A stretch of 59,595 bases of DNA from a virus (taxonomy: Duplodnaviria > Caudoviricetes), in the IMG/VR virus record IMGVR_UViG_3300027791_003052, positions 1-59,595 of that record, one strand, 5' to 3'. Shown in pieces: positions 800 to 32,917 of this stretch; position 1 is the first letter of the stretch; every line of letters begins with the position of its first letter. Both the position numbers and the translations under genes were made by a program. The notes beneath the pieces are model-generated. The model ran no database searches, was not told where the DNA came from, and saw only the letters and a list, made by a program, of their open reading frames with translations.

Positions 800-3700
800 T
801 TAGAAGAAAATACCGAGTATTTGATTTACAGATGCAAACGTTCCTGTTAACTTAAATGTACTACCATTATATACGAATACAATTCCCTCATTTGGTACAA
901 TTTTCTTAGAACCACCGATTGATTGTAATCTACCAAGTTCTAATTTAAGCTTTTCAATCTTTTTTGGGTCACCTGATTTCTTAACATCTTTAATTGTCTT
1001 ATCAATTCGTTTTTTCATATCACGAACGGCTTTATCAGGGTTAACTGTAAGTGCAGATGAAGTAAATTCTAATACTTCAGCTCCCAATCCTAAGAATATC
1101 TCTTCGAACTTCATTAAGTTGGTTTTACCAATCTTCTTTTGGTCTTCTTTATCTGTTTTCTTAGCCCACTCTAATGTTTTTTCATCATTAAAGTTCTTTT
1201 TATCTAATCTAAAACCCTTTTCCATGAATGCCCATCTCTTAACTAATCCCATTTTGGTTTTGTTATCAAGTGATGTAGGTGAATTCTTATCTACCCATTG
1301 TTCCCACCATGCTTGGTGATAGTTTGCAACACCATCAGTATCTTTTAAACTAAATTCTTTCTGTAATTTAGATATCTGTGATGAATATTTAGATTTACTC
1401 TTGTTTAAGTTCTGTGATTTGGGTAATTTGATTACAGGTGGTCCTTGGATTGTATAATTATCTTGTACATCCTTATTAACTTGTTTAATCATACCAGCTA
1501 GTACTCTTGCTGCATCACCATTCTCACCAATTGCAATTCCATCCATATTAAATTCCATAGTTCCATGGAATACCAATAATGCTTGTCCATAAGGAATAAC
1601 ATTAACTGATGTTGGATAAATTACTTCAAGGTTCATGAAACATGCTCCTTGTTTGAATACTTTATCTCTTTGTTTTTCGGATAATGATTTTATAGAATCT
1701 GAAAGGTCTTTCATTGCAAAGTTATAAGCTTTTTCTAATTCACCTCTACCAGCAAATTTATCAGCAACTGCTTTAATATCTAAAGCATTCTCACCTTTGT
1801 TCTTTAAGTGTCCTTTATTACGAGCTGCTACTAATCTTCCATCTCTCCATGAAATAGCCAATGCTTGACCATCTGTTTTTTCTCGTGTGAATTCTAATGT
1901 ACCCTCTAAGGCACGATTTACTATATCTTTAAGTTGTCCAAAGGTTAAATTGATATCAGTATCAAATGGATGAGACATATGCCCATACGCACCACCTTCT
2001 TGAAGTAATTTAGTTTCATTTATGTTTTCATTGATTAGTTGTTGTGGTGTTTTGGTGTTTGGTAAAAACATTTCAACTAACTTATTATCAATATCACTTA
2101 TTAACTGTTCTATACTATCCATATTTTCGTTTTCTTTAGATTCACCCAACCCACCTTTATCATGTTTTGAAAATTTACCTAATTTATCAAATGCTCTGAA
2201 TGATTTTAACTTATCTTGTTTTACAGGTCTCATATCAGATAGTTGTTTGTATCTCATGTGGTTTTTAACAATGTAATATACATTTGCTGCATTACCATCA
2301 ACCGATTCTATAAACTTTTTATACTTCTTTACTAATGAAGCAGATACTTTCTCATGTCCAAAGTGTGTGATGTGTCCTTTCTTTGGGTGAATACCCGCAG
2401 TTTCATCTTTTCCTATATCATGGAACATTGCTGCTATTGCAATATCAATATCATCTTCTTTGATTGAACGATTCACAACCATAATAGTATGTTTAAGAAC
2501 ATTACCCTCTGGATGTTTATCTACTCTTTGACCAAAGTTCTTTAGATTGTAAACTCTCTTTTGTAAATCAGAAGGCATCTTTTTAAATAGTGATTTAAAA
2601 TCTGTGATTCCTAAATCTTTTAAACCTTCTTTTAAGTTTGTTATTTGGTTAGTTTTCTTCCAAGCTTTTTTACTAAATACAACATCATCTTTTACCATCA
2701 TTATCATTAATGCTCTACCGAACTTTAACTTATCTTTAATATGAGTAAATTCTTTATTATCTTTTCTAGCCCATTTGTACCATAATGCCGATAGAGTTAA
2801 AAACATCTTTCCACCATTATCTTTATTTTTTAGAAGTTCCCTTTTAAACATTCCTCTATTTTTGTATGCATATTTTTTAAAATCTAAATATACAAACTCA
2901 TTAGGAGTATCCATTGGAAATGGTTTACCTTCTTTAACTGGTTTTGCTTTTAAAAATGCTTGGTCTACAATATCTTCATTCTTTTTTTCGAATTTTTCAA
3001 CTTCCTTTGCTCGTAATGTTGGTAAGAATCTGAATTTAGCTCTTTTTATTATTCTACCTTTTTTTCTTACTACATTCTTATGAACTACTTGAGTTTGTGC
3101 AATAGATAAATCAGCTTTCTTAATACCAGGATATAATTCTTCGGAGAATTCAGCATAAACTTGTCTATATGCCATCTTGTAAGCAATCTTCTTAAGTTTA
3201 GAAAGAGGTTTTCTACGTTTCATTGTTCTTGCTCTTCTTCTAGCAATTTCCTTACCCTTCCCTGCCATTGCTGCTTTTCTTCTCAATCTATCAGCAGGTC
3301 TCATCTTACCTCGTTCATCCAAATCCTCGGATTCAATTGTGTATTTTGCATCTGATGATTTAAAATCATCTTTTCTCATTATGGTTTTAGCGATTAGTTT
3401 ATTCGCTTGTTTCATAAATGGAATATTAAGGTTTGTTCGATTATCCTTTACTACAATTTGATTATATTGATTAAGGAATTTTATAAAATCTTTTTTCTTT
3501 TTACCCAATCGTTTAAAGAAACCAATTAATTCTGCATTAGATACTTCCTTTCCGTTTCTCGGGTCATTTAACCTATCGAAGAAATGTTTGCCTGTAAGAA
3601 CTGTATCTACCGGATTCAATTGTTTATCTGCAAACTTATCAATCTTTTGTAAGTCAGACATTGGCATTTCATTTAAGAAATTTTCTCTTTCTTTATTTTT

Positions 3701-6157
3701 TATCCACAATCCAATTTCTGCACCTTTGATATCAGAGGGTACATCGTTTCCACCAACTGATAGTTTAAAACTTACAAACTTCTTCATATCCTTTCCAATC
3801 GATTTACCAAAATCTACTATTTGGTTATCAGAAAGTGAAGTTTTTTGTTGTAGTTTTTTATAAACACCAACTTCTTCTGGTTTAAAATATTGTAATGATA
3901 CTAAAAATACAATATCATTTTTTTCAGCATTTGTATATGATAACTTATTTAATAGTTTTCCTAATAATGATGGAGAATTCTTTTTTAGAAGTACTGATAG
4001 GAATACAATGTAATCAGTAGTTTTAATATATGGTTTATTTATTTTAAGATTTGGTAAAATTTGAGAAGTGAATCCAATTTTATCACACAACTCCATATAC
4101 TTCTTTGTATCCTTTGATGTTTTAAGTGATTTTACAAATTCATCTCTAATTCTTTCAGCTGGAAGTGATTTAAGTGATGGGTCTTTTTGTAACGCATCTA
4201 ATAACTCCTTATCTAAACTACCACCCATTCTTGATTGAAATCTTAAAGCTCTTAATTTTCTTAATGGGTCTTCATCAAATCTCTCAACAGCATTTCCAAC
4301 TGTTCTAATGTTTTTCTTTTTAAGGTCTGCAATTCCACCAACTAAATCAACTATTTCTTTTCTTTCAATATCATAGAATAAAGCATTTATAGTTAAATCT
4401 CTTCGTTTTACATCTCCTTCAATATCTGTATATTCTACTGAATCAGGTCTTCTACCCTTTCCAATATCTTTTCTGAATGTTGCAACTTCATGTCCACCAA
4501 CGATTACAATTCCCAATCCCATTCCAGTACCTACATCTTGAGATGTTTTGAAACCACCATCTTTACCAATCTTCATTGTTTCTTCTGGTTTAGCATCAGT
4601 TGCCAAATCAAAATCTTTTGGGGATTTACCTAAAATAGCATCCCTAACTGCTCCACCTACTATATAAAGTTTTTTACCGTTTTTTTTAAATTGCTTTTGT
4701 AGTTTAACAATATCCGATGGTACTTTTAGTTTAAAATTTTTAGATTCATTTAAACCCATCTTTTCTTGCCACGATTCAAATGCATCGAAATCATATTCTT
4801 GTTTCTGAGAATCCCATCCACATGAATGACATAAATACTTCTCACTATCATCAGATTCGATTTCCCATTGATGATTACATTTTTCACACTTTACTTCTGT
4901 TCCTGCAAGTTCTACAATATAATGGTCAAATACATTTGGTTTTTTTGGTCCGTATCTGAAAGTTACTACCTTCTTACCATTAATTGTTGGTAATCCATGT
5001 TCATCTTCACCAATAGATTTAACAACTACCTTTTTGTTTTTGAATTTACCCATTAAAAGAGTATCTCCAATTTCTACTGGTAATTTAATTACTTCTTTTA
5101 ATGAATTTTCAAATTCATCTTGTGATTTCTTATCACCACTTTGAGAATCTAATGATTGTTCTTTTTCATCTTTATTAGTTTCCAATCCATTTACTATTGA
5201 ATATCCTACTAACGATGCTTTTCTTGTTACGTGTTTGAACCATTTAGAATAGGCATCACTTGAATAGATATCAACTTGATTAGTTGCAGTTTGTGCACCA
5301 AGTACACCTGCTGGGAATGGAGTTACTGCTTTAACAGGTCCGTTTGGGTAAGTTGGGTGTTCATAATAATCTTCTAATTCCTTAGTAGTTATCATGTTTA
5401 CAATATCATAACCAATCTTAGCTGCTCGTTTTGCATTTATACTTTTGAATACTTCATAGTTTGGAAAAAATACATTTGGTCCATCATCCGATTGTCCTGT
5501 TCCTGATTTTGAACTTTCATTTATTAACCATTCTTCAATTTGTTCTTTTGAAATGAAAATACCTTCGTTTAATTTTGAAGTAATTAAATTAAAGATGGTT
5601 TTATTGAATTTGTTATATGCTCTATCTGTAAAGAAATCTTTCTTTTGTTCATCTGAACCGTTTGATAATCCATTACGAACTTCAGTACCGCTTACAGAAT
5701 TACCTGCCATTGGTGCTACATAAACGTATCCTCTATCTCGATATCCTTCAGTTGGTTCACCCTTATATGGTTGGAAATATTTTCCACCTAAACGTGCTTT
5801 ATCCTTCTCACCAACTACTGTAATAAATGCAGTTGTATCCTCATCAAACTTTTTAAGTATTTCTGTTGGTTTGTAGTTATTCTTAACTTGATGTATTTTG
5901 GATTTTGGAATTCCAAACATCGTTGTCATGATTTTTACCTTCTCATTGAATTTGAAAGGTGATTTTAATTTATCAGTTTTATTAGAACTTCCTATAAACA
6001 CGTTATCCTTACCGAACTTCTTTACAAGATGCTGATACGTTCCATAATGTCCTTTGTGGAATGGTTGAAACCTACCCACATAGATAACTACGGTTTTTTT
6101 AATGGGATTATCACCCAACATTATACTCTCTACGAGAAATTTGGAAAGTTCATTCAT
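800..6157 (-). CDS. 1785-aa multidomain polyprotein: HxGH nucleotidyltransferase, KOW/SH3-like, Zn ribbon, class II CCA-adding enzyme, RNase-like, basic domain, HD hydrolase, ATP-dependent ligase-like domain
   Basis: GRFQPFHKGH (aa28-37); CEKC..CHSC; VGGAVRD/DFDLAT/RRDLTINA/EDPLRKLRALRF; HPEGNVLKH..HDIGK..HFGHE; EKTDG..NLEVI..NEGIVF..KLTG. Confidence 0.9.
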   Translation of the reverse strand: MNELSKFLVESIMLGDNPIKKTVVIYVGRFQPFHKGHYGTYQHLVKKFGKDNVFIGSSNKTDKLKSPFKFNEKVKIMTTMFGIPKSKIHQVKNNYKPTEILKKFDEDTTAFITVVGEKDKARLGGKYFQPYKGEPTEGYRDRGYVYVAPMAGNSVSGTEVRNGLSNGSDEQKKDFFTDRAYNKFNKTIFNLITSKLNEGIFISKEQIEEWLINESSKSGTGQSDDGPNVFFPNYEVFKSINAKRAAKIGYDIVNMITTKELEDYYEHPTYPNGPVKAVTPFPAGVLGAQTATNQVDIYSSDAYSKWFKHVTRKASLVGYSIVNGLETNKDEKEQSLDSQSGDKKSQDEFENSLKEVIKLPVEIGDTLLMGKFKNKKVVVKSIGEDEHGLPTINGKKVVTFRYGPKKPNVFDHYIVELAGTEVKCEKCNHQWEIESDDSEKYLCHSCGWDSQKQEYDFDAFESWQEKMGLNESKNFKLKVPSDIVKLQKQFKKNGKKLYIVGGAVRDAILGKSPKDFDLATDAKPEETMKIGKDGGFKTSQDVGTGMGLGIVIVGGHEVATFRKDIGKGRRPDSVEYTDIEGDVKRRDLTINALFYDIERKEIVDLVGGIADLKKKNIRTVGNAVERFDEDPLRKLRALRFQSRMGGSLDKELLDALQKDPSLKSLPAERIRDEFVKSLKTSKDTKKYMELCDKIGFTSQILPNLKINKPYIKTTDYIVFLSVLLKKNSPSLLGKLLNKLSYTNAEKNDIVFLVSLQYFKPEEVGVYKKLQQKTSLSDNQIVDFGKSIGKDMKKFVSFKLSVGGNDVPSDIKGAEIGLWIKNKERENFLNEMPMSDLQKIDKFADKQLNPVDTVLTGKHFFDRLNDPRNGKEVSNAELIGFFKRLGKKKKDFIKFLNQYNQIVVKDNRTNLNIPFMKQANKLIAKTIMRKDDFKSSDAKYTIESEDLDERGKMRPADRLRRKAAMAGKGKEIARRRARTMKRRKPLSKLKKIAYKMAYRQVYAEFSEELYPGIKKADLSIAQTQVVHKNVVRKKGRIIKRAKFRFLPTLRAKEVEKFEKKNEDIVDQAFLKAKPVKEGKPFPMDTPNEFVYLDFKKYAYKNRGMFKRELLKNKDNGGKMFLTLSALWYKWARKDNKEFTHIKDKLKFGRALMIMMVKDDVVFSKKAWKKTNQITNLKEGLKDLGITDFKSLFKKMPSDLQKRVYNLKNFGQRVDKHPEGNVLKHTIMVVNRSIKEDDIDIAIAAMFHDIGKDETAGIHPKKGHITHFGHEKVSASLVKKYKKFIESVDGNAANVYYIVKNHMRYKQLSDMRPVKQDKLKSFRAFDKLGKFSKHDKGGLGESKENENMDSIEQLISDIDNKLVEMFLPNTKTPQQLINENINETKLLQEGGAYGHMSHPFDTDINLTFGQLKDIVNRALEGTLEFTREKTDGQALAISWRDGRLVAARNKGHLKNKGENALDIKAVADKFAGRGELEKAYNFAMKDLSDSIKSLSEKQRDKVFKQGACFMNLEVIYPTSVNVIPYGQALLVFHGTMEFNMDGIAIGENGDAARVLAGMIKQVNKDVQDNYTIQGPPVIKLPKSQNLNKSKSKYSSQISKLQKEFSLKDTDGVANYHQAWWEQWVDKNSPTSLDNKTKMGLVKRWAFMEKGFRLDKKNFNDEKTLEWAKKTDKEDQKKIGKTNLMKFEEIFLGLGAEVLEFTSSALTVNPDKAVRDMKKRIDKTIKDVKKSGDPKKIEKLKLELGRLQSIGGSKKIVPNEGIVFVYNGSTFKLTGTFASVNQILGIFF
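803..1996 (-). other. Ligase/capping-superfamily nucleotidyltransferase domain (aa1388-1785 of the polyprotein)
   Basis: Motif I EKTDG, III NLEVI, IIIa LVFHG, IV NEGIVF and V KLTG in canonical order. Confidence 0.7.
2141..2626 (-). other. HD phosphohydrolase domain of the CCA-enzyme-associated type (aa1178-1339)
   Basis: QRVDKHPEGNVLKHT, AAMFHDIGK, HFGHEKVS, KNHM; parallels the HD domain of E. coli-type CCA enzymes. Confidence 0.85.
3668..4744 (-). other. Class II tRNA nucleotidyltransferase (CCA-adding-like) domain (aa472-830)
   Basis: Motif A GGAVRD..DFD, motif B RRDLTINA, motif D EDPLR (EDxxR template), ERIRDE. Confidence 0.9.
5564..6100 (-). other. HxGH (cytidylyltransferase/NMNAT-like) nucleotidyltransferase domain (aa20-198)
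   Basis: GRFQPFHKGH, SPFKFNEK, VVGEKD, SGTEVR. Confidence 0.85.
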
Positions 6158-6178: not shown

Positions 6179-6187
6179 TATAAATAT
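6179..6187 (-). promoter_or_regulatory. ATATTTATA motif upstream of the polyprotein
   Basis: 21 nt upstream of ATG at 6157. Confidence 0.6.
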
Positions 6188-7741: not shown

Positions 7742-8279
7742 AATACAGTTCAGGATATTCAACCAATACAGTTGGACCTCCTCTTTGTAAGGCTTCTGTA
7801 TATGCTGGTAATATTTTTTCGGCACTATCCAACTTTATTACTGGTGTGTGTTTTAACATGGATGAAAACTCATCCGTATAATCTGCTTTATGTTGATGAC
7901 CAGGATCTAATGGAGTATCAGAACCTTTACCAACTCTAATTAATAAAGTTGGATTCCACTCACCATCAGACATTACATTAATCTTATCAATATGATTAAT
8001 CAATTGATTAGCAGCACAAATAACAAAATCCCACCTAGGGTAAAAAGATACAACTGATTTACCAGCCATACCCATTCCCAATGTCATTCCCATTTGAACT
8101 TCTTCCATTACAGGAGTTTCTATCATTCTTTCTTTTGGCAAACCCTCAATTGTTTTACTCATTGGATTTCCATAATAAACAATTTGTTGTCCTATGAATA
8201 TCATATTAGGGTCATCCATACAAAGTTTCATAGATTCCGTTAAGGCATCTAAATATGGTGTGAATTCTGGTTGTGCCAT
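7731..8279 (-). CDS. TPP-dependent enzyme E1-beta/transketolase pyrimidine-binding subunit (short, no C-terminal domain)
   Basis: IFIGQQI, IETPVMEEVQMGMTLG, ANQLINH, GHQH; 182 aa. Confidence 0.85.
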   Translation of the reverse strand: MAQPEFTPYLDALTESMKLCMDDPNMIFIGQQIVYYGNPMSKTIEGLPKERMIETPVMEEVQMGMTLGMGMAGKSVVSFYPRWDFVICAANQLINHIDKINVMSDGEWNPTLLIRVGKGSDTPLDPGHQHKADYTDEFSSMLKHTPVIKLDSAEKILPAYTEALQRGGPTVLVEYPELYYAN

Positions 8280-9271
8280 TATGGTCTTGAGTTAGGGTTA
8301 AATTGTTCTTTGTTTGCTTTGTACCATTTTAGTGCATCTATCAATCCACTTCTTAAATCATATTTAGGTTTCCAACCAAGTTTTAATAATTTTTCGTTTG
8401 ATAATAATCTTGCTGGAATCATTGGTGCTTTGTTATTAACAAATTCTACTGGATTTGTATTTCCTTCAATTTCTTTAATTAAATCAAGTACTTCCATTAC
8501 AGTATGACCACTTCCATAACATACATTATAGATATCATATGTATCAACCTTTTCTGCAACTGTTATAAATCCACTTACCATATCATCAACATGAATAACA
8601 TCTCTTATTTCAGTTCCATCTCCCCAAACAGGAATAGGATTTAAGTTATCTGCTACTTTTCTAATATTTGCTGGTGTAACATGACATTTTTCAAAATCAT
8701 ATTTATCATTCGGTCCAAATGAATTAGAAGGTCTGATAATTATACATTGCATTGGGTCGTGAATCTGATTAGAGAAGAACTCACATAAAGTTTCTCCATA
8801 TCTTTTCATCCAACCAACTGCTTTATATGCAGGATATATGTTTGGTGTTTGTACATTCATATCTTCAGTACAATATTCTCCACCAATATCTGGATAAGTT
8901 GTGTTAGAAGAAATAAACATAAACTTACGAACTTTGTTTCTCCAACTTTGTTCCATAAGATTAGTATTCATTTCTACATTGGGTGTTACATGAATTAATG
9001 GATTTACTTTTGTATCTAATGCATTTGATGTATTTGCTGCCGCATGAAATATAACATCAACATCTTTAGAAACCAATTCACAAAAACTTGCTTCTCGTAA
9101 ATCTCCTAAAAGATGTTCAACAGAATCACTTCCATCGAAATCATTTCTTAATCCTCTACTCCATGAAGTAGAACGTAAATTTGTATAACCTTCTTCCCAT
9201 AGCATTTTTATTAATCGTGAACCTATGAATCCACTTGCACCTGTAACTAAAATTTTATCTGTTTTTTTCAT
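8279..9271 (-). CDS. NAD(P)-dependent sugar epimerase/reductase, GDP-L-fucose-synthase-like SDR
   Basis: TGASGFIGS, RPSNSFGPND, HVTPA, VWGDGTEIRDVIHVDD. Confidence 0.85.
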   Translation of the reverse strand: MKKTDKILVTGASGFIGSRLIKMLWEEGYTNLRSTSWSRGLRNDFDGSDSVEHLLGDLREASFCELVSKDVDVIFHAAANTSNALDTKVNPLIHVTPNVEMNTNLMEQSWRNKVRKFMFISSNTTYPDIGGEYCTEDMNVQTPNIYPAYKAVGWMKRYGETLCEFFSNQIHDPMQCIIIRPSNSFGPNDKYDFEKCHVTPANIRKVADNLNPIPVWGDGTEIRDVIHVDDMVSGFITVAEKVDTYDIYNVCYGSGHTVMEVLDLIKEIEGNTNPVEFVNNKAPMIPARLLSNEKLLKLGWKPKYDLRSGLIDALKWYKANKEQFNPNSRP

Positions 9272-10196
9272 AATATTTGTATGTTTGTTTTATTCCTTCT
9301 TCGAATCCTAATTTTGGTAACAATCCGTATTGTTTCTGTATCTCAGTACTCATACATCTTCTCATATCACCATTGGGCTTTGAAGTATCCCAATTTATTT
9401 TTATTTCTTTACCACTAACTTTAGCAACTGTTTCAATCATTCTCTTGATTGATATTTCTTCACCACTACCTAAGTTAGTAGTTATGTGTAATTCATCTTC
9501 TAAACACTTTATACACCCATCAGCAACATCACCAGCATAAATGAAATCTCTTGTTGGAGTTCCATCTCCCCATGCTTCTATTTCATCGGTTGCATCATAA
9601 ACCTTTCTACAAGTTGCACCAATTACAGTTGCTCCTTCTCCAAAGTTATCATATTCACCAAAGATATTAGCTGGTCTTACGATTGTAAACTTTTCATATT
9701 TGTGTTGTACTTTATGGGCTTCTAAATACAATTCCGGTATTCTCTTACTCCAAGATGGAAACCAATCATTTGGCGATGGAAGTGTTTTCCATACTGTATC
9801 TTCTACAAATACTTCTGCTGGTTCATATACACCTACTGAACTCATGAATACCAACCAACAATTATGTTTATGCGAATTTTCAATTATATTTGTATTAACT
9901 TTAATTGATGGTTCTAAAAAATCTAATGGTTTTTCTTTTGCTCGTATAGGAGAACCCTTGATACCAAATGCATTTATAACTCCATCAAATTTATATTCTT
10001 CAAATATAGCTTCAACCGTTTCCACATCTCTTAAATCCAATTCTAAAAATTGAAATCTATCACTCTCTGGTAGGGATCTTGAATATCTTAAATCAACACC
10101 CACGACCGAGTATCCCAAATCTTCTAATTTGTTACATAGATGAGTTCCCACCAATCCACTACATCCTGTTACTAATATTGTTCCTTTTGTTTTCAT
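9255..10196 (-). CDS. NAD(P)-dependent sugar epimerase/reductase, GDP-L-fucose-synthase-like SDR
   Basis: TGCSGLVG, RPANIFGEYDNF, WGDGTPTRDFIY, WDTSKPNG. Confidence 0.85.
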   Translation of the reverse strand: MKTKGTILVTGCSGLVGTHLCNKLEDLGYSVVGVDLRYSRSLPESDRFQFLELDLRDVETVEAIFEEYKFDGVINAFGIKGSPIRAKEKPLDFLEPSIKVNTNIIENSHKHNCWLVFMSSVGVYEPAEVFVEDTVWKTLPSPNDWFPSWSKRIPELYLEAHKVQHKYEKFTIVRPANIFGEYDNFGEGATVIGATCRKVYDATDEIEAWGDGTPTRDFIYAGDVADGCIKCLEDELHITTNLGSGEEISIKRMIETVAKVSGKEIKINWDTSKPNGDMRRCMSTEIQKQYGLLPKLGFEEGIKQTYKYYEKNR

Positions 10197-11340
10197 TTTC
10201 TATAACATTAAATATTTTTTTTAAACCATCAGGTGATTCCATTTCTTGGAATAATTTGTTATTATATATACATATATGTTTTACATTTTTATATAATAAA
10301 TTTATCTCTTCAATTGATTTTTTATTTAAATCAAGTATAACTTCTATCAATTTTAAATACCGGTTTTTTGGGTCTTTAATTTCATCATAACTCTCATCCC
10401 AAAATTCACCGAAAGTTTTAAATCCAAGTTTATGCAATTCTTTTAAATATCGATATGGTCCTATTAAAATAAATGGTTGAAAATTTAAAATAGGTTTAAA
10501 AATCTTTTCAGATATAAACATTTCATTACTTTCAAACGAAGTTTCGGATACTATATGTATAGCCGAATCTAGAAATAATTTTGTTGGAAACGTGTTAGAT
10601 ACTTTAAAACTATCAATGATGTGACCATAACCATGTGTATCCAATTCTATTGGCAATTTCTCATTATATTCACTAGAAGATAGTTTTGCAATAGTATCAT
10701 TATATATATTACAATTATTAGCAGAATTTATTTTTTGTAAAAAACTAAAATATGAATCTGAAAAATCATTTGTTAAATAATCATGTAGTAATGATTTTCT
10801 ATGTGTCTTATCATTATTTCGACTAAATGATAGAAATTTCTTATTTCTATATGAATCTAATTCTTCTTCTTTAATTTTTATACTAACATATCCAAGATCA
10901 TTATCCGTACCAAAGTGGGTGAGTTTATCTCTAACTGTCTCTTCAAAAAAATAATGCAATGTATATACATTTTCATCATTTTCTAAATTAGTATTTGAAT
11001 GAATATAAACTACGTTATCATATATTTTTTTAACTCTTGTAAGAGTCTTTGTTATTTTTAATGAGTCTCCCTCTACCTCATCCATATCAGGATCTATAAC
11101 TGAACATACACATATTATTAAGTTATTTTTCAATACATATGATACAAATTCATCGGTAAGCATTTTTTGAAAAGAAGTAGTCCCATGAAATGTTTCAATA
11201 AGAAGTACGTTCTTATACCCATCTAATATCTTTAAATCAGTTGTATATTGATAACCTTTGGATTTAATATAATTAGATATTGGACCGGTCTGTGTGTGCT
11301 CACTTGGTAGTGGAAAAATAAAATTTAAAATACTACCCAT
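10159..11340 (-). CDS. Putative glycosyltransferase, GT-B/GT10-like family (copy 2)
   Basis: KFLSFSRNNDKTHR, IHIVSET, ISEKIFKP, LGFKTFGEFWDESYD. Confidence 0.6.
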   Translation of the reverse strand: MGSILNFIFPLPSEHTQTGPISNYIKSKGYQYTTDLKILDGYKNVLLIETFHGTTSFQKMLTDEFVSYVLKNNLIICVCSVIDPDMDEVEGDSLKITKTLTRVKKIYDNVVYIHSNTNLENDENVYTLHYFFEETVRDKLTHFGTDNDLGYVSIKIKEEELDSYRNKKFLSFSRNNDKTHRKSLLHDYLTNDFSDSYFSFLQKINSANNCNIYNDTIAKLSSSEYNEKLPIELDTHGYGHIIDSFKVSNTFPTKLFLDSAIHIVSETSFESNEMFISEKIFKPILNFQPFILIGPYRYLKELHKLGFKTFGEFWDESYDEIKDPKNRYLKLIEVILDLNKKSIEEINLLYKNVKHICIYNNKLFQEMESPDGLKKIFNVIENENKRNNISNRM

Positions 11341-11966
11341 TTTCCTGTTCCATAGTGTGGATATTTTGATTTATACTTGTAATAAATTACATCTTCTGGT
11401 ATTTCTCTTTGGATCTCATTCCAAGTATGTGCCGTTGGTGTATTTGTAGAAACTTCATTATCTTCTACTACAAAGTTAATTGGTAAATCAAAGTTTCTTG
11501 CATATTTATGAACTTCGTAAAATATACCTGTTTCAAATGTCATATCTCCAATGAAACACCAAACTTTATTTGAACTGTTTTGTTCTTTTAATGTTTTTGC
11601 AACTCCCAGTGCAATTGGTAAAATTCCTGATACAATGGCAGATGAATAGAATTTGGATTCTTTATCTATTATTGTTATTGATTTTCCAGCTAATATTTTT
11701 TCTTTAAGAACATTAGGCTCTACCCCATGTAAAAGTGCATGATAATGAGACCTCCATGTTGAGAATACCCAATCTTCTACTCCTACCTTTTCAAATACAT
11801 TTATTAATTGCTCTTCATTACCATGTGATAAGTGTATTGGTCCGGTTATTTCTCCATTCTCCCAATGTGAAATTATATCATTTTCAAAAGAAATTAAATC
11901 TTCTTTTGATAAATTTCCCTCTAACCATCTATCTTCATGATAATCTAAATTAAGAATCTTTTCCAT
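11325..11966 (-). CDS. TPP-dependent enzyme E1-alpha-like subunit (short)
   Basis: GPIHLSHGNEE, STWRSHYH, SAIVSGILPIALG, TPP motif GDMT..VEDN; 213 aa. Confidence 0.85.
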   Translation of the reverse strand: MEKILNLDYHEDRWLEGNLSKEDLISFENDIISHWENGEITGPIHLSHGNEEQLINVFEKVGVEDWVFSTWRSHYHALLHGVEPNVLKEKILAGKSITIIDKESKFYSSAIVSGILPIALGVAKTLKEQNSSNKVWCFIGDMTFETGIFYEVHKYARNFDLPINFVVEDNEVSTNTPTAHTWNEIQREIPEDVIYYKYKSKYPHYGTGKWVVF

Positions 11967-12552
11967 TTTTGTCTCTTTTAGAAATTATTGGATTAGTACA
12001 AGGCCAGTCTATATTGAACTTTTTACTATTCCATTTTATTGTTTGTTGTTTATCTACATCATTAAATTCACCTTGATATGCCATTTTATAGTTAAAGATA
12101 CTATCATCCTTCATTACATAATGTCCATTTGCAAACATGGGTGGAATCAATACTTGTGTTGCCGTTTCTGGTGAAAGTATAAATGATTCCGATTTACCAT
12201 ATGTAGGATTATTTGTTATACTACCACCTCGTAAATCTAATACCACTAAATAAATTTTACCATGTAAGCAACTAACAAGTTTCCAAGTTTTTTCATCATA
12301 GTGGAGGCCTCTTAAAACACCTTCTTGTGATTTAGAATATCTATCATGTTTAAATACCAATCCTTTGTTTCTATCTTCAGCTGGAAGAATTCTATCATAA
12401 TAATCTGAATGATATGTTGTTGATATAGATCCTCTTGCTTCATGATATATCGATGGTTGTATTACCTTTACTTGATTAAGTATAGTACCATGGTAGAAAT
12501 GAAAATCATTCCAATCTCGTTCTTTATAAAATATACTACGTCCTTGTGCCAT
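11950..12552 (-). CDS. rmlC: dTDP-4-dehydrorhamnose 3,5-epimerase family (RmlC-like cupin)
   Basis: ARG, GVLRGLHY, KLVSCLHGKIYLVVLDLR, LIPPMFANGH, NIDWP, ISKRD. Confidence 0.85.
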   Translation of the reverse strand: MAQGRSIFYKERDWNDFHFYHGTILNQVKVIQPSIYHEARGSISTTYHSDYYDRILPAEDRNKGLVFKHDRYSKSQEGVLRGLHYDEKTWKLVSCLHGKIYLVVLDLRGGSITNNPTYGKSESFILSPETATQVLIPPMFANGHYVMKDDSIFNYKMAYQGEFNDVDKQQTIKWNSKKFNIDWPCTNPIISKRDKNGKDS

Positions 12553-13504
12553 AACCTAATGGGAAATCATTTCTATACTTTGAACTTAAATCTTGAATAA
12601 GTATTGTATATGTTTTTATTAATTCTTCTATTCCATCATCTAATGAGTACTCTGGATACCACCCAGCATCTTCTATTTTCTGATTAGATACAATGTAATC
12701 TCTTTTATCAGGGTCTTCAAAGTAATCAGAATATGTAACTGCAAAATCAGAAATATATTCTTGTATTTTTTCTACCAATTGTTGTTTTGATAAATTAGCA
12801 GTAGATAAACCTACGTTGAAAACTTCTCCACTATGTGTTTCATAATCTTCAATCATAAATAAAAATACATTAGCTACATCTCTTATATGTATGTAATTTC
12901 TAACAAAGTTCTTTTCAAATATAGTAATGTATTTATCGGTTAATGCTTTGTAAACAAATTCGTTTACTAATAAATCCATTCTCATCCTCGGTGATGTTCC
13001 AAATACAGTTGCCAATCTTACTGATATTCCTCCTATTTTTAAAACTTCACTTTCTGCTTTTACTTTAGTTACTCCATAGTGTGATAGTGGATTCAGAGGA
13101 CTTTCTTCAGTACACTCTCCATCAACTCCTATTCCATATCCACTATTTGTGTTTGGATACACTACTTTTACATTTGAGCCCTCTACTAACTCACATATAT
13201 ATCTTACGTGCTCATAGTTTATTGCCGTTGCTAATTCTTTATCTCTATCACACGCAGGAAATCCTACGATTGCCGCTAGTGGAATGATTATATCAAAATC
13301 AAAAACTAAATTTTCAAGTAATTCTTTATTTCTAACATCTCCATATATGAATTCAAAATTCTTATCGTGAGAAAATATTATAGATGATGTTTGATTATAC
13401 ATTAGATTGTCTAATATAGTAACTTCATAATTATTTTTTAATAATTTTTCTGTTATAACCGAACCGAGGTATCCTGAACCTCCTGTAATTAATACTCTTT
13501 TCAT
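12536..13504 (-). CDS. NAD-dependent sugar epimerase/dehydratase (extended SDR)
   Basis: TGGSGYLGS, LAAIVG, YGVTK (YxxxK), RLATVFGTSPRMR, RNYIHIRD. Confidence 0.9.
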   Translation of the reverse strand: MKRVLITGGSGYLGSVITEKLLKNNYEVTILDNLMYNQTSSIIFSHDKNFEFIYGDVRNKELLENLVFDFDIIIPLAAIVGFPACDRDKELATAINYEHVRYICELVEGSNVKVVYPNTNSGYGIGVDGECTEESPLNPLSHYGVTKVKAESEVLKIGGISVRLATVFGTSPRMRMDLLVNEFVYKALTDKYITIFEKNFVRNYIHIRDVANVFLFMIEDYETHSGEVFNVGLSTANLSKQQLVEKIQEYISDFAVTYSDYFEDPDKRDYIVSNQKIEDAGWYPEYSLDDGIEELIKTYTILIQDLSSKYRNDFPLGYGTRT

Positions 13505-14937
13505 ATTAAATTTGTTTTTTTGTAAAGTTGAGTTAATAATTTATTTTCAAATTCTCCGTTAACAAATAATTCTTTTAATAAATTTTTATTATATTCTAAT
13601 GTAGGTTTCATTTCTTTAATCATTTCAATCATTTCAGTAGGTGTCTTACTACAAATAGATTTAATTTCTTTTAAAGTCATTTCAACTCGTTTTTTAAAAT
13701 CCAATTCCGAATCATACGATTCATCCCACCATTTATCGAATGTTTTAAATCCAATGGATTGTAAGTGTTTTAATGTACCTGGATTTCCGTTTATAAAGAA
13801 TGGGTGTAAATTCATTATTGGTTTTAATGTTTTCTCTGTTATAAACAAATATTTACTTTCTGCATTTGTTTCTGATACAATGGAGAAATATGTTTTTTCA
13901 TATTCATCTTTTCTACTTAAGAAATTGTGATACCATGCAACTTCTTCTTCGTTACCATTATCAATAATAAGTGGATACCATTTATCAATATACTCACTCC
14001 ATTCATTCCAATCTGATTTAGAAATATTTAAATTACCATCATTGTTTTTTGATTTTAATTGGAAATCAAAATCTGGTGTCTTGAATAGTGATATTATCCC
14101 TTTATCTAATAAATTGTTTTTAAATAATTTATTTACAAAATAAGGTCTATGTAATCTTGCAGAATTACGGTTATACATTAAATAATATTTTTCTTTTTTA
14201 TCAAATATTAAATTCTGTTGTAGTGAATAGTTATATCCGTTTTCTACAATACTGTTTTCACGTTCTTCTGTTTCTACTATAAATTGTCCTGATTTATAAA
14301 CATAGTAATCATTATTATAAATAGCAATTCTTGTATTTTCTTTATATGATTTAAATTTATTTATATGCTCATTACACGTTGATATTACAAATTTTTGATT
14401 GGATGTTATACCAAGATTATCTAAAAAATTGTTTATTTTTTTAAAAAGAGCAGGTTTATGTGGATATGATCCTTCTCGATTATCAATCATTGCTATTTTA
14501 AAGTTTTCATATTTTTTATAATAATCCAACAATTTTGGTGAAAACATATCTTCAAATTTATTAGATACATCTGTGTAATATTCAAAGAAACTTGATGCAT
14601 TTGTTGATTCAAGTACTATAAAAAAAAGAGTATTGTTTTTATCATATCTACTAGATTTCATAATATCATCTACTTCATTTACACTAGTTCTAATCCATTC
14701 ATCATTATGAGTTATATACTCATCTGCAAACATTCCTTCTTGAAAATTAAATTTACCTGGATTATGTGGGGATGCTAATAAAACTCCAGGCGTATCTACG
14801 TGATTATCAATTTGATTCATCACATTTATAGGTAAGGTATATCGATTGTACCCAAACTGCAATGGTCCATTTGGTAATATGAAATCATATACAAAGTAAA
14901 CTCTCTTTTTCATTATATTAGATTTGCTGACATCCAT
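13501..14937 (-). CDS. Putative glycosyltransferase, GT-B/GT10-like family (copy 3)
   Basis: YLMYNRNSARLHR, YFSIVSET, ITEKTLKP, IGFKTFDKWWDESYD; true start may be M9. Confidence 0.6.
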   Translation of the reverse strand: MDVSKSNIMKKRVYFVYDFILPNGPLQFGYNRYTLPINVMNQIDNHVDTPGVLLASPHNPGKFNFQEGMFADEYITHNDEWIRTSVNEVDDIMKSSRYDKNNTLFFIVLESTNASSFFEYYTDVSNKFEDMFSPKLLDYYKKYENFKIAMIDNREGSYPHKPALFKKINNFLDNLGITSNQKFVISTCNEHINKFKSYKENTRIAIYNNDYYVYKSGQFIVETEERENSIVENGYNYSLQQNLIFDKKEKYYLMYNRNSARLHRPYFVNKLFKNNLLDKGIISLFKTPDFDFQLKSKNNDGNLNISKSDWNEWSEYIDKWYPLIIDNGNEEEVAWYHNFLSRKDEYEKTYFSIVSETNAESKYLFITEKTLKPIMNLHPFFINGNPGTLKHLQSIGFKTFDKWWDESYDSELDFKKRVEMTLKEIKSICSKTPTEMIEMIKEMKPTLEYNKNLLKELFVNGEFENKLLTQLYKKTNLI

Positions 14938-15641
14938 TTGTTATCAAATAAAATCATATGGTTTCCATTAAGTGAAATATCAAAAACTTTATATGGTGTC
15001 ATATCTTTTTCTTTAAAACTAAAAGCAGCTGCTGTTTTTAATCCTGAATCTGGTTCTATGATTTCATTAGAGGTCATATTGAATATACTTAGTTTATCAG
15101 TATCTGAAACTATACTATCAAATATTGATACGTGTGATATTGTTCCAAAGAGAAATCCCCTGTGTTCAACTGCACAACTATCTAATGAGTTGTTTGCACC
15201 CACCCATATCCAAGAATCTCTATAATCAATAATTTCACCCTCATATATGTTATCCATAGATTTTCCATCAACATTTAATGTCATTGTTTTGGTTTTACTA
15301 TTATGTAACATTGATATATTCATAAATTTATCATTATCCTCTACATCAAACCAAATATCTTTATATTCAATTTCACCACTTTCTGATAGAACCCACCATT
15401 GGGCCTTAATGTATGTACCATTGGTATATTTGAATGCGTTTATTCCACAATGTCTACCGTTTTTTGCAACAATACCACCTTCTTGGGTTGGAGTTTCTGG
15501 AGTCATTTTATCCCAATCAATTTTTACTTTTGCTAAGATAGAAAAATCATGTTCCGTTAAATCATATGTTTCATTGGTAGATAATCCATATCTATTTTTT
15601 GGTGGTACGAAATACGCATTATTTCCGTTTAATTTTATCAT
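14913..15641 (-). CDS. Stand-alone LamG/concanavalin-A-like lectin domain protein
   Basis: LNGNNAY, LNVDG, WIWVGA, LFGTISHVSIFD, DISLNGNH; paralogous to the inserts in the two GT7 genes. Confidence 0.7.
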   Translation of the reverse strand: MIKLNGNNAYFVPPKNRYGLSTNETYDLTEHDFSILAKVKIDWDKMTPETPTQEGGIVAKNGRHCGINAFKYTNGTYIKAQWWVLSESGEIEYKDIWFDVEDNDKFMNISMLHNSKTKTMTLNVDGKSMDNIYEGEIIDYRDSWIWVGANNSLDSCAVEHRGFLFGTISHVSIFDSIVSDTDKLSIFNMTSNEIIEPDSGLKTAAAFSFKEKDMTPYKVFDISLNGNHMILFDNKWMSANLI

Positions 15642-17077
15642 AATTTAATTTCTAAACATTTGTTATAAAAATCAGCTAACTCTGGAAATGTTTTTTCAAA
15701 ATTAGTACCTCTTCGTTCATCATGTGCTTTAAAATAATATCCGAAATTTCTTCTTTGAGTTTTTAAAGCCTGTTCATCAATTGGGGATATCATCCAATCA
15801 TGTGTTCTTTTAATTTTCTGTATTTCTACATCGGAGTATCCAATATATTCTTTTTCAAATAATGGAACTCCAAGGAAATCACAGTATTGTGCATCTTGAA
15901 ATATCTTATCCGACCATTGTTTTTCTCCTTGTAACACCTGTACTGTTTGATGTTTTGGATGTCTTAAATAAGAAGTATCTAAAAATGTAGCAGAATTCCA
16001 ATACCTATCAGTTGAACCATACTGTGTTTTTAAGTCATATACTCCTTTTATTAATTTATGATAATTAGGTATAGATAGTGCGTTGTAAGTTACCATGTAT
16101 GTTAATATTACCTTTGGACATTTCTCTAATACTTTATGACAATTATCCCAAAATTTATTAAATTCTAAACCATTACGAATGTACTCGGCCTGTTCACCCC
16201 ACGTATCAACCGAGGTAAATATTACAAATTCATTTACTCTATTATCATCACAAATCTTATTTATCTTATCAATAAATTTATCTATCAATTTATCAGGAAC
16301 TCCTAAATTTGAATTAATTGCAAGGTTAATTTTACGATTTGGTTCTGGATGTTCTATTATATAGTCCAACACTCCCCATGTATCTTTACTCAAAAGAGGT
16401 TCACCTCCTGTAATTCTAAAAGTGTGTAAATCTTTATACAAATCTGGCCACCACTTCCAAAATGCATCTACATATGGATTTGGTTCACTTGCAAGATATG
16501 GAACTTTTTTTTCAAACTCTAAATGTTTTGGATTATTAAAAGAATCAGTTGTTGGATATGCACCAAACTTTTCTATCTCTTGCATCCAACTGGATGAAAA
16601 AGCAGGACCACAATATGAACATTTAAAGTTACAAGCATTTGAGAAAGCAACTTCTACATATTTTGGATTATAATCTTCCCTCCAATTCAGTTGTTTGATT
16701 TCTTCCATGTATGGTCTTGACCAATTTTCACCTGATTTGAAAGTTCTATCTGAAAATCTATCTGAATTATCTTCTATATTCCAACAGAAATCACATTCAG
16801 TTGGTCGTTCACCCTCTAACATTTCCTTTCTACGTCTTTTTTTGAAATTCGTATTATGTAGAGCAGTTGGGTTTCTTTTTAACTCTTTTAAAGAAATTTG
16901 GTGAGTTGCAGGATGGTGACAGGAATGAGTATGTCCAAGTTGTAAGTGCATTGTAACTTGTGTCCATTTTGCTAAACAAAATCCATTACCGACACTATTT
17001 AACTCATCTCGTACTTTTACATAAACAGGACTATCATCATCAATAGCTATTGTAGTTTTTTTCTTTTCTTCTGACAT
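15638..17077 (-). CDS. Radical SAM protein with N-terminal twitch/SPASM-like Cys cluster
   Basis: CNFKCSYC (CxxxCxxC), TGGEPLL; N-terminal CLAKW..CHHP..CDFCW. Confidence 0.9.
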   Translation of the reverse strand: MSEEKKKTTIAIDDDSPVYVKVRDELNSVGNGFCLAKWTQVTMHLQLGHTHSCHHPATHQISLKELKRNPTALHNTNFKKRRRKEMLEGERPTECDFCWNIEDNSDRFSDRTFKSGENWSRPYMEEIKQLNWREDYNPKYVEVAFSNACNFKCSYCGPAFSSSWMQEIEKFGAYPTTDSFNNPKHLEFEKKVPYLASEPNPYVDAFWKWWPDLYKDLHTFRITGGEPLLSKDTWGVLDYIIEHPEPNRKINLAINSNLGVPDKLIDKFIDKINKICDDNRVNEFVIFTSVDTWGEQAEYIRNGLEFNKFWDNCHKVLEKCPKVILTYMVTYNALSIPNYHKLIKGVYDLKTQYGSTDRYWNSATFLDTSYLRHPKHQTVQVLQGEKQWSDKIFQDAQYCDFLGVPLFEKEYIGYSDVEIQKIKRTHDWMISPIDEQALKTQRRNFGYYFKAHDERRGTNFEKTFPELADFYNKCLEIKL

Positions 17078-17100
17078 ATTATCTTGTATATTAATATATA

Positions 17101-18576: not shown

Positions 18577-18986
18577 ATCGAATCTGCTATTAACTTTTTA
18601 AATTTAGTTGTACTCCAACCATGTGAACGAGATATCCAATGAATTAATGTTCCTAATTCTTTTCCTGTATATGGTTTGGCAATATAATCATCACCTAAAA
18701 ATCTAACATCAGGGTTTATACTCTTAATTAAAAAAAGTAATTCCTTTTCTGTATTATAGGTTAGGAAAGTTGGTTTATTAAAAAAATATTCCAACATCTC
18801 TTTTCGTTCATCGATAGTTAGTACTGGTTTTAATTTTTCAGGTCTTTCTATTGTAGGATCGTTTTGTAATAAGATATATTGTTTCTGACACGTATCATTC
18901 ATCTCTTTAAATAATTTTACATATCCAGGATGTATAACATCAAAGTTACCAGCAACTATTCCTATTTCAACTTTTTCTATTTCCAT
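18573..18986 (-). CDS. Cytidylyltransferase (TagD/glycerol-3-phosphate cytidylyltransferase-like)
   Basis: AGNFDVIHPGY, KPVLTIDER, FLGDDY, RSHGWSTT. Confidence 0.85.
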   Translation of the reverse strand: MEIEKVEIGIVAGNFDVIHPGYVKLFKEMNDTCQKQYILLQNDPTIERPEKLKPVLTIDERKEMLEYFFNKPTFLTYNTEKELLFLIKSINPDVRFLGDDYIAKPYTGKELGTLIHWISRSHGWSTTKFKKLIADSI

Positions 18987-20410: not shown

Positions 20411-20425
20411 CTGTGTTTATTTTGT

Positions 20426-20602
20426 TTATTTTTTTATAGTATTTTCATACCATTCAGATAAGTACCATTCAATTCGAGGTCCCCATGCTTCTTTATCGAT
20501 TTCTTCTACCCATAGAGTAAGTGCATCTAAGGAATTACCGATTTTTTCAAGTGCTTTTACTTTTCTTTCTTCTAAAATTTGTGAAGTTTCATCTTTTGCC
20601 AT
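20426..20602 (-). CDS. Small hypothetical protein (58 aa)
   Basis: Manual translation MAKDETSQILEERKVKALEKIGNSLDALTLWVEEIDKEAWGPRIEWYLSEWYENTIKK; fills the gap and follows an ATATTTATA motif; below the ORF-track cut-off. Confidence 0.75.
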   Translation of the reverse strand: MAKDETSQILEERKVKALEKIGNSLDALTLWVEEIDKEAWGPRIEWYLSEWYENTIKK

Positions 20603-20642
20603 AACGTAAATTAATTAATTGTTTTTGTTTTTGTTTGTTGTA

Positions 20643-20651
20643 TATAAATAT
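20643..20651 (-). promoter_or_regulatory. ATATTTATA motif
   Basis: Intergenic, upstream of the 58-aa ORF and the GT7 genes. Confidence 0.55.
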
Positions 20652-20660
20652 ATAAAATTA

Positions 20661-32687: not shown

Positions 32688-32696
32688 TATAAATAT
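32688..32696 (-). promoter_or_regulatory. ATATTTATA motif upstream of the tail-fibre gene
   Basis: 18 nt upstream of ATG at 32669. Confidence 0.6.
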
Positions 32697-32752: not shown

Positions 32753-32917
32753 ATGAAAGAATATAAGATGATTCAAATTAGTAAGGAACACCATGCTAAG
32801 CTAAAGAGTTATTGTAAAATCAATGACAAAAAGTTAAGCAAGGTGGTTGAAAGGCTAATAGATACCCACACATTGAAATTGATAGTAGATACAAAAAATA
32901 TACTAAAAGTGGGTTAA
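32753..32917 (+). CDS. Ribbon-helix-helix (CopG/Arc-like) DNA-binding protein, 54 aa
   Basis: Manual translation MKEYKMIQISKEHHAKLKSYCKINDKKLSKVVERLIDTHTLKLIVDTKNILKVG; beta-alpha-alpha pattern; fills the gap, stop overlaps the convergent sbcCD stop. Confidence 0.7.
   Translation: MKEYKMIQISKEHHAKLKSYCKINDKKLSKVVERLIDTHTLKLIVDTKNILKVG

Follow-up and report, generated by a model that had tools for sequence, protein, structure and literature searches.

How does a phage come to carry a CCA-adding enzyme, an HD phosphohydrolase, and a ligase-like domain in one gene, and do these domains work as a single enzyme? The question is raised by P0001, a minus-strand open reading frame (ORF) at the edge of the tailed-phage record IMGVR_UViG_3300027791_003052. 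The whole record, 59,595 bases, was analyzed and is called the window here. We propose that P0001 is a cargo polyprotein of a distant T4-like phage that is loaded into the head, cut by the head protease, and injected and that its pieces mend RNA or tRNA ends. From our analysis of the genes, we put the probability of this reading at roughly 0.55.

P0001 is one intact ORF with about 10 modules

An earlier note, made from this DNA alone, had described positions 803-4744 as a candidate tRNA repair set in one gene, with a CCA-adding domain, a detached HD domain, and a KxDG ligase-like domain. We found that this range is exactly residues 472-1785 of P0001, that is, its last 1314 codons, and we located all the quoted strings in the P0001 translation. 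The three domains were confirmed in one intact 1785-codon ORF. A further 471 N-terminal residues precede them: a 10-residue leader and an HxGH domain, then a module that matched no family, a small one, and a CxxC...CxxC zinc ribbon. The 347 residues between the CCA and HD modules make up three further modules. The features of P0001 are as follows.

800..6157, minus strand: whole modular polyprotein ORF P0001, 1785 codons plus stop
6128..6157, minus strand: leader, MNELSKFLVE (residues 1-10), which follows the T4 capsid-targeting rule (hydrophobic residues at 4 and 7, Leu8, Glu10)
5564..6127, minus strand: module 1, HxGH nucleotidyltransferase, NMNAT-like (PF01467, 1f9a, phrog_395), ends SKLNE (residues 11-198)
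5093..5563, minus strand: module 2, unknown, recurs after module 1, ends NSLKE (residues 199-355)
4910..5092, minus strand: module 3, small (…GKFKNKKVVVKSIG…PTINGKKV…), recurs in many relatives, ends HYIVE (residues 356-416)
4745..4909, minus strand: module 4, zinc ribbon (CEKC at 424, CHSC at 443), ends MGLNE (residues 417-471)
3668..4744, minus strand: module 5, predicted class II CCA-adding-type tRNA nucleotidyltransferase, ends NFLNE (residues 472-830)
3329..3667, minus strand: module 6, unknown but conserved (invariant KHFFDR…AKT), with the noncanonical end YTIE (residues 831-943)
2975..3328, minus strand: module 7, very basic and helical-looking, common in relatives, with the noncanonical end KKNE (residues 944-1061)
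2627..2974, minus strand: module 8, unknown and rare, ends TNLKE (residues 1062-1177)
2141..2626, minus strand: module 9, Cca-type HD phosphohydrolase, ends GGLGE (residues 1178-1339)
2015..2140, minus strand: linker, modeled as disordered (residues 1340-1381)
803..2014, minus strand: module 10, RNA-ligase-like covalent nucleotidyltransferase (residues 1382-1785)

Only the unusual length and mosaic makeup of P0001 raise the suspicion that it is an assembly chimera or that it arises by read-through of several genes, and we found no support for either. An identical 1785-amino-acid (aa) protein is recorded with 27 member sequences, and many near-identical long forms (1571 to 1765 aa, 98 to 99% identical in the C-terminal domain) lie on separate contigs from separate sources. 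From these two observations we concluded that the fusion is real and not an assembly artifact. Two further observations speak against a chimera. The same locus is present in 80 viral contigs, and P0001 runs through 5355 bases with no stop codon at 30% G+C, which is the G+C content of the window. All the long ORFs of the window lie on the minus strand. We consider a chimeric or read-through origin extremely improbable.

The modules are shuffled among relatives

P0001 is a chain of about 10 modules that are shuffled among its relatives. In a BLAST comparison of P0001 with 386 relatives, we found break points clustered at residues 196, 355, 401, 471, 831, 943, 1061, 1176, 1342, and 1384. Among relatives with 85% or more identity in the C-terminal domain, lengths run from 1030 to 1853 aa, and the middles differ, with CCA plus HD, HD only, DUF5661, GNAT, or only a zinc finger. 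Elsewhere among the relatives, modules are rearranged, stand by themselves, or have different neighbors, such as a Pnkp-type kinase or GNAT. At each seam, what comes after a given upstream module varies. The CCA module is followed in relatives by module 6, the ligase, HD, module 7, or others, and the HD module is followed by the CCA module, the ligase, or others. Pfam scans of 34 diverse relatives found some with AAA_33/Zeta-toxin-type P-loop kinases, and the relative P0289 has a weak SprT-like match in place of module 2. Microcystis phage Mel-JY01 has a 639-aa homologue whose alignment covers P0001 residues 20-207 and 1366-1785 and nothing between them.

We counted motifs in the 150 best family representatives and found HxGH in 93, CCA in 6, a P-loop in 5, and HD in 4. 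Because CCA and HD occur in only 6 and 4 of the 150 and HxGH in 93, we concluded that CCA and HD are optional cassettes and that HxGH is the usual partner of the ligase. The dedicated fusion of three enzymes that the earlier note had pictured is thus not supported; what we found is a shuffled chain in which CCA and HD are optional.

One cassette found in a relative is a kinase. P0266 (1930 aa) carries HxGH, DUF5661, an AAA_33 kinase, HD, CCA, and a ligase-like end. The best PDB match of its kinase stretch is the RNA repair kinase Pnkp1 (4xrp, E 4.1e-11), with a weak match to T4 polynucleotide kinase (1ly1, E 0.0095). Judged by these matches, the Pnkp1-type cassette in P0266 fits the RNA repair theme. 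In P0001 we found no P-loop, and Pfam scans detected no kinase in P0001 or in the window, as the earlier note had said of a 5'-kinase domain. Since neither the protein nor the window has a 5' kinase, the window does not encode every step needed to heal and seal a 5'-OH break. As for the polynucleotide kinase that the earlier note proposed seeking elsewhere in the genome, the Pfam scans showed none in the window, and a Pnkp1-type cassette occurs in the relative P0266.

The seams resemble head protease sites

To compare the seams, we aligned the last 40 residues of each upstream module to every relative. At seams 355, 471, 830, 1177, and 1339, P1 was Glu in 27/27, 27/29, 17/17, 10/10, and 27/27 distinct strings, respectively, and P3 at these five seams was L, I, M, or V. 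P0001 holds 19 [LI]xE words, and shuffling gave an expectation of 15.7 ± 3.6. We found that 16 of the 19 lie within 285 seam or linker residues (2.5 expected) and 3 within 1500 module-interior residues (13.2 expected). Seven of the 10 break points are no more than 4 residues from an [LI]xE word, which was reached by none of 20,000 random placements. The linker itself has L/I-x-E words with P1 at 1362, 1377, and 1381, with another at 1387 just past it. In a model of residues 1366-1785, the first 20 residues, which belong to the linker, had a predicted local distance difference test (pLDDT) score of 35 to 36.

The same words are depleted inside the ligase domain. We counted them in 125 ligase domains, namely, those of the 146 representatives P0243-P0388 in which a regular expression found 350 to 450 residues. 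[LI]xE occurred at 0.48 of the shuffle expectation, and the control words [LI]xD, [VA]xE, and [LI]xQ occurred at 1.05, 0.98, and 1.13.

The T4 prohead protease gp21 cuts after L/I-X-E, according to excerpts of PMC9026906. The seams of P0001 look like head protease sites, and we infer from their sequences that the parts probably act as separate proteins. The leader points the same way. The excerpts of PMC9026906 describe the first 10 residues of T4 internal protein III as a capsid-targeting sequence (CTS), in which positions 4 and 7 serve mainly in targeting and positions 8 and 10 in processing. The P0001 leader, with L4, F7, L8, and E10, agrees with this T4 rule as excerpted. Among 66 distinct strings from the leader position of relatives, some of which are false alignments, 63 have L or I at P3 and 43 have Glu at P1. 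We also found that stand-alone ligase-like proteins begin MIRLKNILNE and that stand-alone CCA-HD proteins begin MIKLETLLSLNE and then run into the start of the CCA module. The T4 internal proteins are described in part of PMC3012670 as diverse antidefense proteins with only the CTS in common.

It could also be that the protein stays whole and works as a cytoplasmic multienzyme tRNA repair machine, as in the picture drawn by the earlier note, with L/I-x-E a habit of linkers. P0001 is one uninterrupted ORF, its Mel-JY01 homologue joins both constant domains without a canonical site, and fused heal-and-seal enzymes are known (Pnkp, Trl1, and E. coli Cca). However, modules are found by themselves with leaders of their own, and their order and combinations vary, so no fixed geometry between domains is kept. 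A linker habit also sits poorly with the invariant P1 Glu at five seams and with the depletion of [LI]xE, but not of [LI]xD or [VA]xE, inside modules, and the gene adjoins a head gene cluster in relatives. Taken together, these data make an uncut protein unlikely.

In relatives, the gene adjoins a head gene cluster with an S77 protease

We found Peptidase_S77 in three of four long related contigs (E 1.3e-27 to 3.7e-28), 7 to 8 kb downstream of the polyprotein gene and on the same strand. In relatives, a sugar epimerase gene comes first, then the polyprotein gene and two small ORFs; these are followed by the large terminase, portal, and protease genes, by more small ORFs, and by the genes for an acidic 419-aa protein and the major head protein. 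The acidic protein, whose gene directly precedes that of the major head protein, has no family match and is possibly the scaffold. By terminase, the nearest isolates are Mel-JY01 and Flavobacterium phage immuto (55%).

In the related head gene cluster, 8 of 16 ORFs have an [LI]xE word ending at residues 8 to 16, and these 8 include the protease, the acidic protein, and the major head protein. Such an early word occurs in 4 of the 38 ORFs of our window, which holds sugar, replication, and tail genes. On the related contig L086, the stretch from the protease to the major head protein (9644-13491) contains small unknown ORFs, several of which have L/I-x-E leader ends within residues 8 to 15. One of them begins MIKLRNLLNE, the same leader type as in the stand-alone ligase-like proteins. 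Judged by these leaders, the small ORFs may be internal proteins of this lineage. The head gene cluster of L086 also holds a homologue of ribosomal protein bS21 (13534-13860; phrog_21469, E 7.2e-8).

Modules 5 and 9 resemble parts of Cca

Module 5 is, by its sequence motifs, assigned as a class II tRNA nucleotidyltransferase, putatively of the CCA-adding type. Pfam matched the PolyA_pol head (PF01743) at 497-618 (E 2e-29) and PolyA_pol_RNAbd at 650-704, and a PHROG tRNA nucleotidyltransferase matched with an E of 5.8e-61. Module 5 also matches solved CCA-adding enzymes (PDB 6ibp, E 4.6e-32). Class II motifs A to E and the flexible loop are all present, with strings at residues 501, 515, 561, 585, 607, 629, and 668. 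Among them are GGAVRD at 501, DFDLAT at 515 (motif A), and RRDLTIN at 585, and the flexible loop and the EDxxR motif that the earlier note had read are found as FRKDIGKGRRPDSVEY at 561 and EDPLRKLRALRF at 629. In NCBIfam, module 5 scored 174 bits against the CCA model (cutoff, 290) and 173 bits against the PcnB model (cutoff, 306), and these scores do not tell a CCA-adding enzyme from a PcnB-type poly(A) polymerase.

The HD domain of module 9 was matched by Pfam at 1229-1330 (E 2.4e-7). Its string HDIGK lies at 1246, and with HPEG at 1215 and GHE at 1267 it gives an H…HD…H…D metal site. When module 9 was scanned alone, the best matches were the HD portions of Cca profiles, namely, positions 251-350 of TIGR02692 (E 9.4e-10) and positions 215-329 of the E. 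coli-type NF008137 (E 1.2e-7). The Cca-type identity that had been proposed for this domain was thus borne out. Its sole PDB sequence match was to the HD part of class II nucleotidyltransferase chains deposited as "Poly A polymerase" (3wfp, E 4.5e-4). The distance of about 350 aa noted between the two domains also holds, as module 9 starts 347 residues past the end of the CCA module (830 to 1178). In E. coli Cca, the HD domain removes 2',3'-cyclic phosphate (PMC6961547, which in the part available cites Yakunin 2004).

The CCA and HD modules might instead perform ordinary maturation and maintenance of tRNAs that the phage itself encodes, with the chain either cut or left whole, and have no part in counterdefense. 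The earlier note had suggested looking for tRNA genes elsewhere in the genome. We found none within the 59.6-kb window; related contigs have them, with 10 in G001 and 4 in G003, and none were found in 3 other fragments. At least 12 of these 14 tRNA genes lack CCA after the 3' end. This favors an own-tRNA role, as does the statement in part of PMC7824862 that large phages rich in tRNAs commonly have CCA-adding enzymes. On the other side, the window itself has no tRNA gene, and hosts with CCA-less tRNA genes already own the enzyme. The Cca-type HD, the RNA-ligase-like enzyme, and the Pnkp-type kinase of a relative together point to end repair, and a head-loading leader on stand-alone CCA-HD proteins would be odd for a housekeeping enzyme. 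We regard an own-tRNA role as doubtful.

Module 10 is modeled with a ligase fold nearest to RNA ligases

By sequence, module 10 (404 aa) falls into no Pfam or PHROG family and matches no ligase in PDB. When Pfam was scanned at E values of up to 1 with 32 family members, we obtained only 2 weak matches, to DNA_ligase_aden of the NAD-dependent type (E 0.034). DUF6267, a label on 24% of one cluster, was not seen in the Pfam scan of 32 members. A family sequence profile searched against PDB found no ligase, and its only matches were to eS6. These matches to the eukaryotic ribosomal protein cover a helical insert (residues ~1560-1670) with E values of 2.8e-5 to 7e-4. They probably reflect a compositional likeness of Lys-rich helices, and the insert may be an RNA-binding element.

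We built an AlphaFold model of the ligase-like domain from 32 sequences, 31 of them relatives picked as nearly stand-alone, and the model had a pLDDT of 91.2. In a fold search of 48,161 PDB chains, the top nine matches were all RNA ligases: TbREL1 (Z, 8.8), NgrRnl (8.7), T4 Rnl2 (8.3), Trl1 (8.3 and 8.2), the Rnl2 N domain (8.2), T4 Rnl1 (8.0), Candida Trl1 (7.5), and an archaeal Rnl (7.2). DNA ligases scored lower (Z, 5 to 7), as did capping enzymes (5.2). Z scores of 8 to 8.8 are middling by the search tool's own warning. The best Foldseek match was T4 Rnl1 (E 1e-3). The ligase fold that had been read from the KxDG motif was thus upheld, with RNA ligases as its nearest neighbors.

The invariant columns of the 32-sequence alignment agree with this assignment. 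In alignment numbering, they are K62/D64/G65, an R, E146, H166, E392/G393, and K404, and they stand in the canonical order of KxDG Lys, Arg-Asn, motif III Glu, FHG His, motif IV Glu-Gly, and motif V Lys. The corresponding positions in P0001 are EKTDG at 1426 with Lys1427, Arg1446, Glu1511, His1531, Glu1757-Gly1758, and Lys1769. The helical insert, about 170 residues long, separates motif IIIa from motif IV. No OB fold is seen in the model, and the chain stops 12 residues past motif V. The lack of an OB domain after motif V sets module 10 apart from DNA ligases and capping enzymes. A conserved N-terminal element, EGGAYGHMxHPFD, is unique to the ligase-like family. On the basis of the model, we place module 10 in the covalent nucleotidyltransferase superfamily, outside every named Rnl family.

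Might the module have another activity, such as sealing DNA (for example, nicks in the incoming genome) or another nucleotidyl transfer, perhaps with the NAD+ of its HxGH partner? The middling Z scores, with DNA ligases next at 5 to 7, leave room for this, as do the lack of a sequence family, the weak match of 2 of 32 members to the adenylation domain of NAD-dependent DNA ligase, and the presence of HxGH beside module 10 in 93 of 150 representatives. Against this, the nine best structural matches are all RNA ligases, and the OB domain that DNA ligases and capping enzymes need after motif V is missing. The cassettes joined to module 10 in relatives (CCA, Cca-type HD, and Pnkp-type kinase) are, moreover, RNA end enzymes. 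An activity other than RNA ligation therefore seems rather unlikely to us.

The family is large, with 1763 clusters at 50% identity (E up to 0.001), many of which are stand-alone 414-aa proteins. Among 50,697 deposited genomes of phages, just 3 encode the ligase-like domain. In literature searches that covered few subscription journals, we found no paper on the ligase-like family, on Mel-JY01, or on RNA repair polyproteins with head protease seams. The relative P0337 (1245 aa), which also has a ROS/MucR domain, carries an intein inside its ligase-like domain (Intein_splicing, E 1.1e-10; Hint), which accordingly matches the family in two stretches. This suggests that the ligase-like domain is under strong functional constraint. 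The family thus represents an enzyme not yet explored, which might also serve as a new reagent for joining RNA.

Module 1 is NMNAT-like, and modules 2, 7, and 8 match no family

Module 1 appears to be NMNAT-like, although its sequence matches NMNAT models weakly. Pfam PF01467 (cytidylyltransferase-like, HxGH) matched at 25-126 (E 2.7e-7), and the signatures GRFQPFHKGH and SGTEVR lie at 28 and 156. The NCBIfam NMNAT models gave an E of 1.8e-9 but only 37 bits, with a cutoff of 127, and aligned to the first 60 residues alone. PDB 1f9a matched residues 26-167 (E 7.7e-6), and phrog_395 matched with an E of 2.7e-17.

Module 2 usually comes directly after module 1 in relatives and has no family match; 39 tblastn matches in related loci cover at least 80% of it. 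Module 6 matches phrog_23027 (unknown function) with an E of 5.6e-9, and its structure model (pLDDT, 56) was too low in quality for a fold search. Its invariant KHFFDR lies in the predicted first helix, and an invariant AKT follows later. As a guess from these letters, the His/Thr pattern recalls the phage BECR RNase-fold domains described in part of PMC5512222. Modules 7 and 8 had no family match in NCBIfam and PHROG scans.

A proposed model for virion-delivered RNA repair

In our model, the polyprotein, a chain of about 10 modules that would each fold independently, would be made late in infection, and its leader would carry it into the prohead. The S77 head protease would then cut it at the L/I-x-Glu seams into single enzymes, and the pieces would be ejected along with the DNA. 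In the new host, the HD enzyme would remove 2',3'-cyclic or 3'-phosphates from damaged tRNA 3' ends, and the CCA enzyme would then rebuild the tail. The ligase-like enzyme would seal 5'-P/3'-OH breaks through a Lys1427-AMP intermediate, and the HxGH enzyme might supply it with NAD+ or adenylylate another phosphate. Together, the pieces would blunt host tRNA-directed defenses from the first minutes of infection.

The tRNA repair role that the earlier note proposed is therefore kept in part. The identities of the three domains, a fold nearest to RNA ligases, and the Pnkp1-type cassette of a relative speak for it, and the idea of a dedicated fusion fell. A counterdefense role for the repair modules is one that we infer from the kinds of enzymes present.

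Several points weigh against our model. The cutting, packaging, and ejection of P0001 are predicted by analogy with T4, and the contig of the window ends before the head genes, so that the protease is seen in relatives only. CCA and HD are rare in the family, and P0001 has no kinase. The NCBIfam scores of module 5 lie below the equivalog cutoffs, with CCA and PcnB nearly equal, and no ligase family matches module 10 by sequence. As for the seams, the module-interior intervals behind the counts of 16 and 3 words were drawn after the sites had been seen. The sequences behind the P1 Glu counts and the 0.48 depletion are kin, and these counts describe a pattern, not independent events or a probability. 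Seams 943 (x-I-E) and 1061 (K-N-E) lack L or I at P3, break point 401 is 15 residues from the nearest site, and some alignment rows at seams 10 and 416 are false. The Mel-JY01 junction has no canonical site, and the two constant domains may stay joined there. A terminal L/I-x-E could also be a linker habit.

We compared P0001 with known systems. Like T4 IPI-III and Alt, it has L/I-x-Glu sites and a short leader in which positions 4 and 7 are hydrophobic, position 8 is L/I, and position 10 is Glu. As with the T4 internal proteins, an S77 protease and adjoining head genes are found in relatives, and the payload varies while only the tag is conserved. T4 cargo, in contrast, consists of single small proteins or one enzyme, Alt, whereas P0001 strings together up to 10 shuffled modules, and its payload, which would be packaged and cut, consists of predicted RNA end enzymes.

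A second likeness is to the polyvalent proteins of Iyer et al. (2017), which excerpts of PMC5512222 describe as mosaic proteins with many disparate enzymatic domains that are encoded next to virion genes and predicted to be delivered with the DNA. P0001 likewise has several disparate catalytic domains, virion gene neighbors (in relatives), and a mosaic structure. In those excerpts, zincin-like peptidases embedded in the polyvalent proteins release the domains; no HExxH (zincin-like) motif occurs anywhere in P0001, which has head-protease-type sites instead. Their Pol-beta nucleotidyltransferases are, in the same excerpts, minimal ones and not CCA enzymes, whereas P0001 has the CCA type. The excerpted text also states that the 2H domains of polyvalent proteins are never seen with RNA ligases.

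P0001 also resembles RNA repair systems. Like T4 Pnkp plus Rnl1 and bacterial Pnkp/Pnkp1-Rnl-Hen1, it has an end-healing phosphoesterase and an enzyme with an RNA ligase fold. Unlike these systems, its healing enzyme is an HD protein and not a HAD or metallophosphoesterase protein, it has no kinase, its ligase has a helical insert and no C-terminal domain, and CCA and NMNAT-like enzymes are added. As in E. coli-type Cca, there are a head and neck with motifs A to E and an HD domain that matches positions 215-329 of the E. coli-type profile. Unlike in E. coli Cca, the nucleotidyltransferase and HD are 347 residues apart with protease-type sites between them, and in relatives HD precedes CCA or either is absent. 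Module 10 shares its fold with Rnl2/TbREL1, Rnl5 (NgrRnl), Trl1, and Rnl1 (183 to 204 residues aligned; Z, 8.0 to 8.8) and has motifs I, Ia-like, III, IIIa, IV, and V in order with no OB fold, but its identity to them is 11 to 15%, with no sequence or profile match.

More broadly, and with somewhat less than even confidence, we suggest that an abundant aquatic T4-like lineage loads its capsids with a shuffled, protease-released kit of RNA end enzymes built around an undescribed RNA ligase family and an NMNAT-like partner. If this is true, tRNA or RNA repair, perhaps with NAD+-linked chemistry, would be injected with the DNA and be active before any phage gene is expressed. It would be the first case of virion-delivered RNA repair and a trans-cleaved counterpart of the polyvalent proteins. 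Known phage RNA repair, by T4 Pnkp and Rnl1, is made after infection. A packaged, premade repair kit would shift the timing of the contest between phage and host over tRNA and widen what the internal proteins of a head can be. The seam rule (module, L/I-x-Glu, next module) also makes it simple to divide giant mosaic ORFs, hundreds of which occur in phages, into single enzymes for testing.

A promoter-like octamer and other genes of the window

A promoter-like word lies just upstream of P0001.

6179..6186, minus strand: promoter-like octamer (putative function), TATTTATA on the coding strand, 22 nucleotides (nt) upstream of the P0001 start

We found the octamer TATTTATA 19 to 29 nt upstream of seven start codons, including those of the polyprotein, the 2994-aa ORF, and baseplate cluster genes. 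The copies are at 767-774, 6179-6186, 32688-32695, 41065-41072, 43041-43048, 55942-55949, and 58990-58997. An eighth copy (48398-48405) lies 4 nt upstream of a start. Of 15 plus-strand copies of the octamer complement, 12 fall in the 2,574 intergenic bases. The octamer is possibly the promoter of one gene class, perhaps a late one. The T4 late promoter word TATAAATA was not enriched in the window, where it has 21 matches with 16.8 expected; 22 of 100 shuffles reached 21.

By Pfam, positions 8279-22276 hold a long sugar modification block. It includes three NAD-dependent epimerase/dehydratases, a dTDP-sugar 3,5-epimerase, a split piece of a TPP enzyme, a radical SAM protein, a second small cytidylyltransferase, a GT2 protein, a methyltransferase, and two glycosyltransferase-7 proteins fused to concanavalin-like lectin domains. 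Two giant ORFs (23685-32669, 2994 aa; 43091-48394, 1767 aa) had no Pfam match at an E of 0.001 and sit among baseplate and tail genes (gp25 at 54825-55256).

A 1052-aa ORF (32914-36072) fuses a calcineurin-like phosphoesterase (Mre11/gp47-like) to AAA_23 (Rad50/gp46-like); in T4, gp47 and gp46 are two separate proteins. At 38364-38849, a gene for a SegE-like GIY-YIG homing endonuclease adjoins the primase gene.

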